The notes beneath the pieces are model-generated. The model was given only the letters and a program-made list of their open reading frames with translations. It did not search any database and was not told where the DNA came from. Shown here piece after piece: positions 32,101 to 38,708 of a DNA stretch of 64,000 nt. Within the stretch, counting starts at the first letter, position 1; every line of letters begins with the position of its first letter. The DNA is taken from NCBI RefSeq assembly GCF_055900595.2, contig NZ_CM148325.1. One strand, 5' to 3'. A program made the translations under genes and the position numbers.

Positions 32101-32943
32101 ATTTGTTAGTCCTGTTTTTACGATAGCTAAAATCAGTTAACGTCACTACAAAACTTTCTGTCCTGTTTAAGCAGTCAATGTGCTATTCGATTTTACTGAT
32201 GTTACATTTAACCTTTTCTTAGTTTTTGTGTTTTTAGTCGTTAACCTGAGACAAGTGTCTTTATGTAAAAATGCAAATCCGGCTGAGATAACCTGGCGTG
32301 ATTTACTGTGTGCTTACGATGATTTTGTTAAATGGTTTTATGGATGATTTTGTAACGATGAGATTGATGAGATGATTAACTGGTCCTGGTGTTTTTTCTC
32401 AGTGCAAGGTGATTATCTTCATCATAAGGCTCTTTTCAGAAAAGCGTGATGATTGGTTCTGGTGTTTTGATTCAGATGAGGTTTACGTTATCGATGGTTA
32501 ATCGTTTTTATGGTGCGTAGTGAAAAGTAACGTTTTCAGTATAAGAAAATCGATTCTGATGTTGGTGGTTTTTGTTCTTGGGGTGGGGTGTCTGTAAACA
32601 GGTTTTAAACGCGCTATTCGGCTCTGTGATTGAGTTTTGTGGTTAAGCTGTAGGTTTTGGTATTGTTGTTGATTCACAGCAGCAGAAAGCGTTCTGATTG
32701 CGTTTTTGGTGTTTTGTTTGCACGTTCTGTTGATCCGTTTCCCTTCGGGCTTTGTAGTTTTTAAAAACCATTTATGCCGTTGTTGTGTGTTTTACCCTGC
32801 GTGTAGGTTTATCTTTTCTTCGTGGGGGATTCATTCTGTTTTAATCAGGAGCCATTGGCGTTGCTCAATGGCGGGATGCCGTAAAGTTTTACCGCGGTGA
32901 TTAATGATGTGAAGTCAATCCAAATCAACGGAGATCTCTCATC

Positions 32944-33675
32944 ATGAATCAACCAATACACAATGCTTACTGGTTATCCCGTTTTGACAGCCTTCTCGAC
33001 AGTGCCCTGGTGCAGCACCGTGCCGTCTCGTTAATTCGGGTGGATTTACGTTTTCCTGAGTATATGCCTGCCACTATTATGGATACCGATTTAGATTCAG
33101 CAGTGATTTCTCGTTTTTTCGAATCCCTGAAAGCAAAAATTCAGGCTTACCAGCGGAAAAAACGACGTGCCAACAAGCGTGTGCATGCAACCACTCTGCG
33201 TTATTTCTGGTGTCGGGAGTTTGGCAAGGAAAAAGGCAGGAAACATTATCACGTGATATTACTGCTCAACAAAGATACCTGGTGCTCGCCAGGGGATTTC
33301 ACCGTTCCTTCTTCGCTGGCGACGCTGATCAAGCTGGCATGGTGTAGCGCTCTGCATCTTGAGCCCTGGCAGGGTAATGGACTGGTTCATTTTTCCAGGC
33401 GGGCGCCTTTCCGTAAACCGACATCATCTGATGCTCGCCCTTCTTCCGATGATACGCCTTTGTCGGGTGGATGTTCTGATACCCGGAAAGCTTCTGACAA
33501 AAAATCTGGTGGATCCGCTGTGCTCTGGGTCAAGCGTGGTGATGTGGAAGCGATGCAGAAAGCCATGGAGAGAGCCTGTTATCTCGTGAAGTATGAGACG
33601 AAGCAGCATGACGGTTCTGGTCAACGTAATTATGGTTGCAGTCGTGGGCCGGGGCGTTTACTGGATGGCAGGTGA
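32944..33675 (+). CDS. Rep-like HUH protein (inovirus Gp2 / YfjJ-YagK family), 243 aa
   Basis: HUH-type motif KHYHVILLLN; family recalled from CP4-type islands; conserved leader immediately upstream. Confidence 0.65.
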   Translation: MNQPIHNAYWLSRFDSLLDSALVQHRAVSLIRVDLRFPEYMPATIMDTDLDSAVISRFFESLKAKIQAYQRKKRRANKRVHATTLRYFWCREFGKEKGRKHYHVILLLNKDTWCSPGDFTVPSSLATLIKLAWCSALHLEPWQGNGLVHFSRRAPFRKPTSSDARPSSDDTPLSGGCSDTRKASDKKSGGSAVLWVKRGDVEAMQKAMERACYLVKYETKQHDGSGQRNYGCSRGPGRLLDGR

Positions 33676-34858
33676 GCCCTGTAAAACGGCATCCGGTGCC
33701 TGAGCATACGTCACGTAATTAACTGTCTTGACCAACAAAATTATGGAGTAACCTGATGGCAGGATTCATTACATTTCTTTGTTCTTTCTGAGTATCGCAT
33801 TCAGGATGGTCAGCAGTTTGCGCATACAGGCTACCAGCACCGCCGTAGTCATTACGCCGATGCCTTTAATGTTGCTCAGGTGCTCAGCTGGTTCTTTAAA
33901 ATGGTTCCGGATGTGGGTGTTCATCTTCCAGCGCTTTGATGATATTAATGTTTTTTTTGCTTTGCGGGTGAGCCGGGTACAACCTGTTTTGCTCAGTAAC
34001 TGGCATTGCGATCAACTGGTGTCTGCAAACGACTATGGCATTAAGAACCTGACGTTCTGCATCCGGCAAAGTCCGGATAAAGCGGTCTCGTTCCGGATGG
34101 TAATTAATAACTGCAGCCATCTGGGCAAAAAAACCGCGCATCATGCGGGTCAGTCTTCGCCAGATATCCCATCGCACGGGCAAAGTCACGAGCTTGCCTG
34201 GGGTTAACTACGGCGATCTCAAAACCTTCGGGCTGAAACGCACAGGTTATGGCGGCCTTCCATCAACACAAAGGCCATATCGTGCTGCCTCAGTTCAGCG
34301 ATGATGAAATCAACGCCGTCAGCACCACTGGCAACAGAAAACCGTTCAATAGTGTTGCTGGCGGTAATATCCAGCGTTGTTTTGGACACATCGGTATCAA
34401 CACAAAGTGGATTTGGCAGACTCATTATTGCCCATTCTTGCTAATGCGTTATGGAGTACGGACAACTGTTCGGGTTTCAGATGAGTGGCTCAGCGTATGC
34501 GCCATTTGCTTACATATGGGCTTAAACCCTAAGGGGCACCAGGCTGCATACGCTTTGCCAAATCTGTTCGCTGCTCATGATAACGAAGAACCAGGATACA
34601 AGGTGGAAGATCCTCAACGCTCAGGGGCGCAATGTTCCCTGTGTTTCATGCCCCCATCGTTTGTTGCTGTGGTGCCAGACTTCTGAGGCACCTCCATGTC
34701 GTTTTGCTTTTGTCAGCATCATAAATGCGTCGGGACTGGTGAATGGATACAAGTCATTTTATTATCGACGTCAGCGAACATACTCACTATGTCGGTATAT
34801 TTCTGAACTGAACAGTAAGTTTTGCGTTGATTACAGTATGCGAAGGAGGTCCATTACA

Positions 34859-36463: not shown

Positions 36464-38027
36464 AATAACCTTACACAGATAAAACAAAATCAACCAACCT
36501 TCATTCGGAGGTTGGTGATAAGGCGTTTTGCATATCCTGCACCTATGCAAATGTTCACCAATTATGGGGGGTGAATGAGAATTTCTCTGAAAAAACCGCT
36601 ACGGTAGCAACAGTAGCAGCACATGCACCACATCTGTGATTTAATTTTGTTTTCATAATGACCTGCTGTCAGAGCTGGTTGAATACAGGAGTGTGCGCAC
36701 TGGTGGAAGCATGGCTTTCGTTTTTTTATTGATCGAAAGTGAATCGAAAGATTATTTTTAACATAGATTAAAGCTAATCATTAACCATATTGTGTGAGTT
36801 TTCATATATAACTTCGTTTGATTTTTGTCGTGATGAGTGCAGGTGTATATGATAATGTTGGTCTCTGCCTGAATAACGAATGGTTATCACTGTTACTGAA
36901 AAGAGATGCTGTTCAAGTTTGCATTTCAATAGGAGAGTGAAGAAAAATGATTTGATATTTTTTTCTGTAAGATAATGGTTTGTCATGTTCGTATTCAGAA
37001 CGGATGATTTCTTATTTTTACTCATCAAACATGGATAATTTTAATTTAGGTTTATTACTATAATTAGTATCTACCCCTTTATTTATCATCCATCTCTGCC
37101 CTTCATTTTCCCTCTCTGTCTTTACACATTCCATTACTCTTATTCTCATCCAGTTATATTCACTCCCTTCCTTGTCTAATCTGCATTGTCACCATTATCA
37201 TGGTATCCACCTTCTCCATTCCTCAATCATAACTACTGTAACTCATATGATACTCAGATAAGTTATTCTCTACTACGCTATTGCTGATATCCATCTGTTC
37301 CTGTTTTCAGTAAAATAATAATTTATTTTAATTTTATCTATCATGAGCTGTATTTGCTTAACAATGATTGTTTATCTGATATGTTTTAACCATTCCGGTA
37401 AATATCAATACTTCTGTCATCACTGATTAACTGAATGTTTACTCTTTGATAAGGTGTCCATGATTTCGTCATGTTTAACAGTGCAGGATAAACAATGAAA
37501 TTAACAGAGTGAATTCCTGATTATGTTTTTTTCGGGTTGTATTGTTTAAGATGCAGGGTAAAAATCATGCCAGTGGTATTTTTTACTCTGGTAATGTGTG
37601 CGGTTAACGTTCATGTCCTTAAGAACAGATTGGATGAGGGCGTATAAGTTTATTGTGTTGGCCTTGTATACGTTTTTTTTAGAACCACTGAGAGCAAGTT
37701 TGTAGTTTATGATGTTATTGGTCGTAATATGTTTCTTGAACTTCTGGTCGTGGGTTTTTATCGCGTGTTTTGCAGTATTTTGTGATGTTTATTGATTCTG
37801 TATTTTATTCGCTCCTCGTTTATCTCATCTCTTTAGCTAATACCATCAGATAATCCATTTATTTCTGCACAACGCTACGTGTCGTTAATAACCGACGTAT
37901 CCATTCTGTTACAGCATGCCTGATAAATACCGTCTGTAAGTTATTACCGTTTTAGATCTGATTATGAGCGAAAGCATTAATTCGTTTACAGCACTTAAAA
38001 CGTCATTAACTTTCAGGAGTCATCAGC

Positions 38028-38594
38028 ATGCCTAAATCTTACACACCAAACTGGTTTTTTACCGCTTTACTTGACAATCACATCAATCAAATGATGGCAC
38101 GCTATTCCTGCCTGCGGGCCTTACGCATGGATTTCTTCTACAGGAAAGATACGCCTGATTTCTTACAACCTGATCATCGCTGGCTTGAATTGCAGTTGCG
38201 TATGCTGCTGGAGCAGGTGGAACAATTTGAAAATATCGTTGGCTTCTTCTGGGTGATTGAATGGACGGCTGATCATGGTTTTCATGCGCATGCGGTTTTC
38301 TGGATCGATCGTCAGAGGGTTAAAAAAATATATCCCTTTGCGGAGCGGATTACGGAATGCTGGCGGTCTATTACGCATAACAGTGGTTCGGCACACCGCT
38401 GTACATATCAGCCGCATTATACATACAACATCAACATTCCTGTGCGCCACAACGATCCTGAAAGCATCGATAATATTCGCGGTGCCCTGCATTATCTGGC
38501 GAAAGAAGAACAAAAAGACGGGCTGTGTGCCTACGGCTGCAATGAAGTTCCTGAACGTCCTGCTGCAGGGCGTCCTCGTAAGCCTCACTTCTGA
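38028..38594 (+). CDS. Rep-like HUH protein (inovirus Gp2 / YfjJ family), 188 aa
   Basis: HUH-type motif HGFHAHAVFWID; same GT-rich leader architecture upstream as the 32944 gene. Confidence 0.6.
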   Translation: MPKSYTPNWFFTALLDNHINQMMARYSCLRALRMDFFYRKDTPDFLQPDHRWLELQLRMLLEQVEQFENIVGFFWVIEWTADHGFHAHAVFWIDRQRVKKIYPFAERITECWRSITHNSGSAHRCTYQPHYTYNINIPVRHNDPESIDNIRGALHYLAKEEQKDGLCAYGCNEVPERPAAGRPRKPHF

Positions 38595-38708
38595 AGCTTA
38601 AGGCCTGAGCCTCCGCTCCTGGAAACACTCCGTCGGTAAAACCTTACCGCCTTGATTAATGATGTGAACTGAAGTCAACGGAGATCATTCACCCTGAACC
38701 TGCATCCG

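Follow-up and report, generated by a model that had tools for sequence, protein, structure and literature searches.

Plasmid leaders that occlude a ribosome-binding site (RBS) are known from traJ, which is under the control of FinP/FinO, and from repZ/repA of the I-complex and IncFII plasmids. In the Ff phages, the gene V protein binds to the leader of the gene II mRNA and controls its translation. Here, we analyzed a DNA stretch of 64,000 nucleotides (contig NZ_CM148325.1 of RefSeq assembly GCF_055900595.2), hereafter the window, in which a motif of ~65 nt occurs twice. Its first copy (leader 1) precedes gene A, which encodes a protein of the YagK/YfjJ family, and its second copy (leader 2) precedes gene C. 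We propose that the motif forms the 5' arm of a stem-loop in the mRNA leader that would occlude the RBS of the gene behind it, a tentative reading that falls a little short of an even bet.

The proposed leaders resemble those of traJ, repZ and repA in that a structured 5' leader would bury the Shine-Dalgarno (SD) sequence and the start codon of a mobile-element gene, with a FinO-family gene nearby. The plasmid leaders silence the element's own functions tightly, and the same outcome is proposed for the leaders of the genomic island described here. Unlike the plasmid systems, however, the island has no identified antisense RNA gene, leader peptide or pseudoknot and no similarity to them in sequence or in Rfam, and the regulated proteins are HUH-like members of the YagK/YfjJ family encoded on the chromosome. 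The likeness to Ff gene II lies in protein A, which belongs to the inovirus gpII-like Rep lineage (PF23343), and in the proposed control at the leader and translation start, whereas the island is devoid of a gene V homologue and its leader sequence is unrelated. Furthermore, the Ff operator is single-stranded RNA bound by a protein, while the island leader is predicted to be a long hairpin. With alpA-yfjI-yfjJ of CP4-57 and yagK of CP4-6 in K-12, the locus shares the AlpA, YfjI/DUF3987 and YagK/YfjJ families in a P4-integrase island; it differs from both in carrying the motif and in having a Gp2-like gene that precedes alpA and is duplicated.

The element is of a familiar mechanistic class and of narrow range (Escherichia only). 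YagK/YfjJ 'inovirus Gp2' proteins and the alpA module are found in about half of the complete E. coli genomes as well as in many pathogenicity islands, and a conserved cis-element heading the C-alpA operon provides a handle on how islands silence and switch on their regulatory and excision genes.

The repeated motif and the genes behind it

The 16-mer TGATTAATGATGTGAA has two exact + strand occurrences in the window (32898-32913 and 38653-38668), and the 12-mer TCAACGGAGATC likewise has two exact occurrences (32925-32936 and 38675-38686). When the two upstream regions were compared by blastn, the sole similarity was a stretch of 68 nt with 75% identity (E 1e-8), so that the similarity of the motif copies is far beyond chance. 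The gap between the two identical blocks is 12 nt in copy 1 and 7 nt in copy 2 and unlike in sequence, which argues against gene conversion. An earlier note on this DNA, made from the letters alone, had placed the copies at 32890-32935 and 38645-38695. Both are confirmed with slightly wider extents, 32881-32948 and 38636-38698, and copy 1, described there as standing just before the gene at 32944, indeed ends in the SD (32930-32934) and the ATG (32944) of gene A. Copy 2 had been described as lying just after the gene at 38028 (gene B). It does span 42-104 nt past the stop of B (38594), but it belongs to gene C (ATG 38841) rather than to B, as several aligned E. coli loci show, in which the sequence is near-invariant through the end of B and the motif, then hypervariable, and conserved again from about 15 nt before the ATG of C. 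Rfam 15 gave no match to either leader at E <= 1 within 28000-44000, and none at the gathering score in a scan of the whole window, and a literature search for the motif sequence retrieved nothing relevant. The motif is thus a real, conserved and apparently undescribed cis-element.

Protein A matches PF11726 (YagK_YfjJ_C; E 5.6e-37, 127.7 bits) and PF23343 (REP_ORF2-G2P; E 1.6e-8, 35.2 bits), both above the gathering cut-offs, and also several replication-initiator families of PHROG. In an alignment with 16 relatives, H101, H103 and RVDLR are invariant, and the tyrosine of YL(A/V)K is retained in all full-length members. Protein B, which RefSeq annotates as a YagK/YfjJ-domain protein, matches the same two families weakly (PF23343 at 3.5e-5 and 24.5 bits, PF11726 at 2.4e-4 and 21.5 bits), under the cut-offs. 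The AlphaFold model of A (predicted local distance difference test score, pLDDT, 77) has as its top PDB matches the nuclease domains of adeno-associated virus (AAV) Rep, albeit weakly (E 0.055, template-modelling (TM) score 0.26-0.31), and PDB chains searched with the sequence of A yielded no match. The label 'Rep-like' is supported at the family level. A literature search for YfjJ and YagK yielded no paper that assigns a function to them.

Protein C has no Pfam match and is linked to the family by profile-profile comparison only. With hhalign, A and C align at a probability of 85.6% (E 5.5e-6, 21% identity), pairing RVDLRLP with RILLRLP, HYHVIL with EYHVVL, and AWCSALG with AWSNVLG; BLASTP finds 23% identity over 75 amino acids (aa). 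The first histidine and the YLxK tyrosine motif are missing from C. By these profile comparisons, C is a distant, degenerate paralogue of A. Because copy 2 leads C, C is a paralogue of A and the alpA module is shared, the two motif copies are, as judged from sequence homology and context, leaders that are homologous to each other and head two paralogous genes of the same module.

Of 5,426 complete E. coli genomes, 1,894 carry leader 1 and 2,713 carry the C locus. In metagenomes, a scan anchored on both core blocks gave 120 loci, which together with the earlier loci make 168 instances, with the core fixed by design. Among these, 83 are A-type, each including the start codon of A (past which one of the 34 distinct variants differs), 84 are C-type, with the start of C within 420 nt in 81 of them, and the remaining one is a chance match. 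Contigs that carry both types have them in the same orientation, the A-type being upstream at a distance of 0.93 kb to about 10 kb. Leader 2 is unchanged from about 60 nt 5' of the 16-mer, whether A (with a terminator), B or IS66 precedes it. In the compact form of the island the order is A, intrinsic terminator, leader 2, C and alpA; the window represents an expanded form, in which an insertion sequence (IS) remnant, yfjI, non-coding DNA and B separate the two units. The terminator, TAAGGGCGT...ACGCCCTTA followed by a T run, was seen between A and leader 2 in two homologous loci (L184, 1428-1451; L172, ~3700-3730), and its place is taken in the window by the IS110 remnant.

Outside this range the motif was not encountered. 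A plasmid collection covering many genera contained matches in Escherichia records only, the regions upstream of K-12 yfjJ and yagK lack the motif, and so do the leaders of A relatives at ~35-43% identity from Brenneria, Providencia, Jinshanibacter and metagenomic contigs. These relatives also adjoin alpA, and several of them face a divergent GTPase or DUF932 gene. In the two motif-free relatives that were folded (L174 and L178), the SD lies in a local hairpin. Scanning with the bare 16-mer gave one real locus of 44 in viral contigs, and in genome contigs all of the at least 120 matches listed were chance matches, none being real.

At locus A, the leader together with the first codons forms the best-conserved ~100 nt (92-100%, vs 76-100% in the coding sequence (CDS) and 46-94% upstream). 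The core of the small palindrome, GTAAA...TAC, is nearly invariant over 34 A-type and 37 C-type variants. In leader 2, 14 distinct copies collected without fixing the core carry TTAATGATGTGAAC-GAAGTCAACGGAGATCATTC, a 35-nt core with a single variable site, whereas the six bases directly 5' of it are hypervariable. The 37 C-type variants agree on the conservation of the core, although the search pattern had fixed the core there. Further 5' in leader 1, homologues of the upstream hairpin pair another 5' arm with the same 3' arm, with no clean covariation. The proposal of the earlier note that the copies are conserved regulatory leaders is supported, since the motif heads two paralogous genes, is the best-conserved part of locus A, has identical cores and keeps conserved downstream partners.

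Two further observations concern gene A. An iteron-like array of ~25-bp units (TATATACACnTATTTyAyTAAGTAT) occupies 31887-32060, 0.9-1.05 kb 5' of A. Its core TAAGTrTT is repeated about 7x, and homologous loci differ in copy number, from 0 to 4. The 214-aa 'variants' of A in loci L172 and L177 (proteins P0064 and P0077) are frameshifted with their C-terminal parts out of frame while the leaders are intact, and by their sequence they are likely pseudogenes.

Predicted folding of the leaders and competing explanations

The ancestral unit would have been composed of the leader, a Gp2-like gene and alpA, and in Escherichia the unit of leader and gene is present twice, in the order leader 1-A ... 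leader 2-C-alpA-D. In leader 1, the 16-mer is predicted to pair with TCTCATCATGAATCA, which holds the ATG, so that the SD would fall within the inner stem. Leader 2 has a decayed start (ATG to CTG or TTA), and its 5' block would pair instead with three islands in the spacer between the motif and gene C; the real SD of C would pair with CUCCGU 5' of the motif, closing a domain of about 200 nt. Translation of A and C would be held low until the structure is opened. We infer + strand transcription from further upstream, folding in the cell and translational repression. On this model, the likeliest of the readings considered, an RBS-hiding leader would be an ordinary though undescribed way to keep Rep-like genes silent.

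The folds predict occlusion of the SD in both leaders and of the AUG in leader 1. The hairpin of leader 1 has a folding energy of -19.8 kcal/mol (z -2.48 vs shuffled sequences), and averaged over 41 leader 1 variants, the SD is predicted to be paired with a probability of 0.94 and the AUG with one of 0.63. Leader 2 with its spacer folds at z -4.0 vs shuffles, and the SD of C is paired in 42/42 variants (probability 0.63-0.99), mostly with CUCCGU. The closing helix between CUCCGU and this SD (ACGGA or AUGGAG) is formed by standard pairs in 41-42 of the 42 variants at each position, and in about 30 of them it has a probability of about 0.8. The complementarity is conserved as well: both spacer allele classes pair the 5' block with UCUYCCG, CRGUUC and CAUCA in antiparallel order, and in the 42-variant alignment the islands common to both classes are UGAUG/CAUCA, GAACYG/CRGUUC and CGGAGA/UCUYCCG. 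When the spacer columns of both classes were permuted jointly, none of 1000 permutations reached the observed -56.0 (mean -36.2, standard deviation (sd) 4.1).

The ribosome-binding region is doubled in leader 2, with a dead copy, AACGGAGATCATTCACCCTGAAC (38677-38699), and a live one, AACGGAACATATCTTATGAAT (38826-38846), and both are complementary to CUCCGU at 38628-38633. Going by this complementarity, the dead copy could serve as an SD decoy. Its ATG-equivalent reads CTG or TTA and stands 11 nt past AACGGA, as in gene A. An open reading frame (ORF) running from the motif into C (GTG 38709, 235 aa) was considered and rejected: in the other spacer allele this frame is closed, so that the spacer is non-coding, and the indels are also not multiples of three. 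The spacer and the 5' CDS of A are not significantly homologous by score. They share one collinear 10-mer, TCCCGTTCTG at spacer offset 30-40 and TCCCGTTTTG at the same offset of the CDS, and this sequence match suggests that the start of the spacer could be a decayed 5' coding fragment.

Paired spacer columns are identical between the allele classes in 15/16 cases vs 61/155 for unpaired columns, which speaks for the pairing, but this comparison is partly circular, as consensus folding selects conserved columns. Several results weigh against a leader hairpin acting in the mRNA. Stricter duplex tests against dinucleotide shuffles of single sequences are only modest (p 0.15, 0.017 and 0.02), and the str673 allele folds at z -1.4 only. 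Covariation does not come to its aid: in leader 1 no pair has changed on both sides and all six variable pairs vary by breaking only, and in leader 2 no association is seen in the sole pair that varies on both sides (C-G, U-G, U-A, C.A). The minus strand folds equally well (alifold -16.7 vs -14.3 for the plus strand; mean minimum free energy -70.3 vs -68.2), and G-U pairs did not tell plus from minus. Because the minus strand folds as well, the inverted repeat could act as DNA or as antisense RNA. A consensus promoter scan found none upstream of either motif copy, nor any overlapping a copy on either strand; a weak, partly conserved promoter candidate lies about 150 nt 5' of A. In addition, the range limited to Escherichia implies that some of the motif conservation may reflect recent spread.

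That the motif works in the DNA, as a promoter with an operator, is unlikely but deserves serious weight. A -10-like AATGAT lies in the 16-mer, the RBS follows, and GGTAA-N4-TTACC, covering the -35 region, would bind a dimeric regulator (such as AlpA, C or D); transcripts would then begin just past the 16-mer, so that no hairpin with the 16-mer could form. The conservation pattern does resemble a promoter spacer between two recognized elements: TTAATGATGTGAA and GTAAA...TAC hardly vary, in contrast to the first 5 nt of the 16-mer, which are variable, and the 6 nt separating it from the palindrome, which are hypervariable. In addition, pairs are broken by the substitutions seen in the outer stem, the terminator about 50 nt before leader 2 in L184 and L172 implies that the C-alpA operon needs a nearby promoter, and the minus strand of the motif reads, by eye and as a partial match, TTCACA-16 nt-TAnnnT. 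However, no -35 element is present, the scan mentioned above was negative for each copy and strand, and the nearest distant relative reads ACTGAT at the -10 candidate, having lost the key A. Nor does a promoter explain why both spacer alleles keep three islands complementary to the motif. The same islands bear on the quite unlikely possibility that the motif is a non-functional relic, with leader 2 being the leftover 5' end of a duplicated A-like gene that is conserved through spread and hitch-hiking. The earlier note had named a recent duplication of a gene end, without function, as the finding that would overturn it. As to origin this has some truth, given the dead start at an unchanged 11-nt spacing from AACGGA and the collinear 10-mer shared by spacer and A CDS, and the confinement to Escherichia and the missing covariation fit as well. 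The decay, though, is very uneven: the 16-mer and 12-mer are identical between the leaders, while the start and spacer retain about 40% identity and the A and C proteins ~21%. Identical cores beside proteins so diverged imply that the duplication is not recent. Between the allele classes, conservation drops in a sharp step from about 100% to about 40% at 38692, and the spacer islands that remain conserved are exactly those complementary to the motif.

The ProQ/FinO-family gene of the module (40530-40832, - strand), which recurs beside D in other strains, raises the possibility that an antisense or trans-acting RNA working with this protein targets the motif, as in FinP-traJ or Inc RNA-repZ. 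The RBS of a Rep-like gene lies within the leader stem-loop, the opposite strand folds just as well, and the spacer forms discrete allele classes as antisense specificity regions do. We nevertheless consider this improbable, since no conserved minus-strand promoter or terminator was found at either leader, the sole minus-strand promoter-like site, inside A of L184, is not kept in the window, Rfam gives no match, and the FinO-like gene is absent or frameshifted in some leader-bearing islands. Very improbable, in our estimate, is a DNA hairpin, extruded or single-stranded, that serves as a binding or nick site (ori- or oriT-like) of the HUH proteins A or B, after the manner of rolling-circle replicons. 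Both proteins keep the HUH and tyrosine motifs, A matches replication-initiator families and AAV Rep nuclease folds, the inverted repeat is strand-symmetric in stability and adjoins both genes, and the iteron-like 25-bp array lies about 0.9 kb 5' of A. The fold matches are weak (E and TM as given above), however, and a loop of 23, about 85 or about 115 nt, unrelated in sequence in the three contexts, would be unusual for a nick site. The gene directly behind leader 2 is C, from which the HUH and tyrosine motifs are lost, mosaic junctions do not fall at the hairpin, and distant relatives are devoid of the motif. If the hairpin were nonetheless such a site, the long-missing DNA substrate of the YagK/YfjJ family would be identified. 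The fuller version, in which the inverted repeat is the recognition hairpin of A/B and the 25-bp array its binding iterons, is a long shot. If true, the widespread CP4-like islands would retain a rolling-circle-type replication or mobilization origin beside rep, as in inovirus genomes, and the strand-skewed non-coding tract would correspond to the intergenic region of the phage.

Three finer readings of the motif were rejected. An AUG-AUG-UGA mini-ORF in the 16-mer might have been a coupling device, but the SD-like GGTGAT before AUG-AUG-UGA is unconserved and comprises the most variable leader positions. By eye, CTGGAAACA was also considered as a sigma-54 element and TGTGA as a CRP half-site, but neither the spacing nor the second half-site agrees.

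Strand-skewed non-coding tracts

The earlier note had also pointed to 400-500 bp of GT-rich DNA before each Rep-like gene and to a stretch at 37060-37320 that is almost free of G. Both GT-rich tracts are real, but they measure about 600 and 320 bp, and within ~190 bp of the start of B the DNA is no longer GT-rich. The stretch at 37060-37320 is strongly G-poor (C 28%) but, with 7.3% G, not G-free. Three more patches with G+T >= 66% lie away from Rep-like genes (12281-12521, 44621-44921 and 61481-61701), one of them in the CDS of a phosphotransferase system (PTS) EIIC, so that GT-richness is not specific to Rep-like genes. The GT-rich tracts of A and B show no sequence homology by blastn. The skewed composition is kept in the E. 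coli homologues (L172 and L177 for A) though the sequences are 56-94% identical with indels, and in UTI89 a G-poor stretch with 5-12 G per 100 nt occurs at the same relative position 5' of B. Also 5' of B, 37450-37660 is a second hypervariable segment, with 56-72% identity and indels vs E. coli strain 673 between flanks of 98-100%.

As for structured RNA, which the note had suggested for these regions, the idea holds for the leaders (z -2.5 for leader 1 and -4.0 for leader 2 with the spacer) but was rejected for the skewed tracts, which fold no better than shuffles (z -0.55, +0.90 and -0.47). The first of these values belongs to the G-poor tract, which is essentially unstructured (-22.9 kcal/mol over 300 nt). 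No + strand ORF of >= 40 aa is present in 37150-38027. G+C is 22-44% across 31850-32850 and 36700-38000, and that of E. coli is about 51%; going by this composition, binding of H-NS is plausible, being compatible with low G+C. The skewed tracts are features of AT-rich non-coding island DNA separate from the leaders.

Rho-loading (rut) sites are C-rich, G-poor and unstructured stretches of RNA of about 80 nt or more. The G-poor tract resembles them with its 28% C, 7% G and lack of structure on the + strand over 36981-37341; it is far longer than a minimal rut site. It thus looks like a candidate rut-like site on the + strand RNA. The B-C-alpA module has this tract at its left edge; in UTI89 the module starts at that point, adjacent to dsdA. 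A Rho-loading site at this place would stop + strand read-through into the module. RNA from the opposite strand of the GT-rich tracts would likewise be C-rich and G-poor.

The genomic island and other features of the window

The window is up to 98% identical to E. coli chromosomes, and at 18-41 kb it carries a genomic island of the CP4-57/CP4-44 kind with a P4 integrase. Beyond the integrase and the cargo genes, a divergent + strand block comprises A, the IS110 remnant, yfjI, 1.56 kb of gene-free DNA, B, C, alpA and D. The ProQ/FinO gene recurring next to D is frameshifted in some strains. Coordinates of the island features are collected in Table 1.

Table 1. Features of the genomic island and of the two leaders, in window coordinates.
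Feature	Position	Strand	Remarks
Integrase	18255-19520	-	
Cargo block after integrase		-	YeeP-like GTPase; antirestriction, RadC, YeeU/CbtA and related genes according to the annotation of the near-identical strain 64.1
GT-rich, C-poor tract 5' of A	32301-32901	+	G+T >= 66%
Leader 1 upstream hairpin	32851-32873	+	GCCATTG...CAATGGC; from sequence and predicted fold
Leader 1 small palindrome GTAAAGTTTTAC	32881-32892	+	Also in leader 2, as GGTAA-N4-TTACC
Leader 1 16-mer TGATTAATGATGTGAA	32898-32913	+	Putative 5' arm of the stem-loop; predicted to pair with 32937-32951
Leader 1 block TCAACGGAGATC	32925-32936	+	Holds the SD GGAGA (32930-32934)
Leader 1 putative 3' arm TCTCATCATGAATCA	32937-32951	+	Holds the ATG of gene A (32944-32946); inverted match to the 16-mer (- strand, 32936-32951)
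Gene A	32944-33675	+	YagK/YfjJ ('inovirus Gp2') family, 243 aa; HUH (HYH) and YLVK motifs
IS110 remnant	about 33770-34430		
YfjI/DUF3987 gene (yfjI)	34859-36463	+	
G-poor, C-rich tract	36981-37341	+	Sole place in the 64 kb with G <= 8% (200-nt windows), about 4 sd under the mean
GT-rich tract 5' of B	37521-37841	+	G+T >= 66%
Gene B	38028-38594	+	Second YagK/YfjJ-domain protein, 188 aa; HAH and YLAK; 5' of leader 2 in this island type
Leader 2 CUCCGU	38628-38633	+	Complementary to two SD sequences, that of C and the relic one of the motif
Leader 2 palindrome CGGTAAAACCTTACCG	38634-38649	+	
Leader 2 conserved putative 5' arm	38653-38692	+	16-mer, GAACTGAAGT, relic SD AACGGAGA (38677-38684)
Leader 2 decayed start	38694	+	CTG at the ATG-equivalent position
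Spacer	38697-38826	+	Hypervariable, non-coding; two allele classes, indels not multiples of three
Islands of the putative 3' arm in the spacer	38724-38733; 38736-38745; 38748-38762	+	TCTTCCCGTT; GCTTCAGTTC; CAcTTATTccATCAA
Second spacer hairpin (predicted)	~38770-38822	+	
Real SD (ACGGA) and ATG (38841) of C	38827-38843	+	RefSeq start sites agree
Gene C	38841-39416	+	Degenerate paralogue of A by profile comparison; EYH for HYH; YLxK tyrosine motif lost
alpA-family helix-turn-helix, excisionase-like regulator	39485-39721	+	PF05930, E 2e-10; 3' of C
Gene D	39913-40512	+	No Pfam match
ProQ/FinO-family gene	40530-40832	-	Convergent with D; PF04352, E 4.9e-17; NCBIfam ProQ and FinO matches

Right after yfjI, a cluster of terminator-like hairpins occupies 36493-36722, with one on the + strand (36702-36722) and two on the - strand (36516-36493 and 36614-36595). 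Elsewhere in the window, a pair of IS1 transposase ORFs, 13936-14439 (+) and 15729-16232 (-), inverted and with the same Pfam scores, stands around a MarR-family gene (14711-15262), and by its layout the IS1-MarR-IS1 arrangement looks like a composite transposon. Rfam matches at the gathering score, all away from the leaders, lie at 9870-9992, 10490-10606, 11657-11835 (-) and 59647-59710 (-); they comprise the STnc490 small RNA, the AS-pc02 antisense RNA and two ALIL pseudoknots, which are frameshift signals of the IS3 family.

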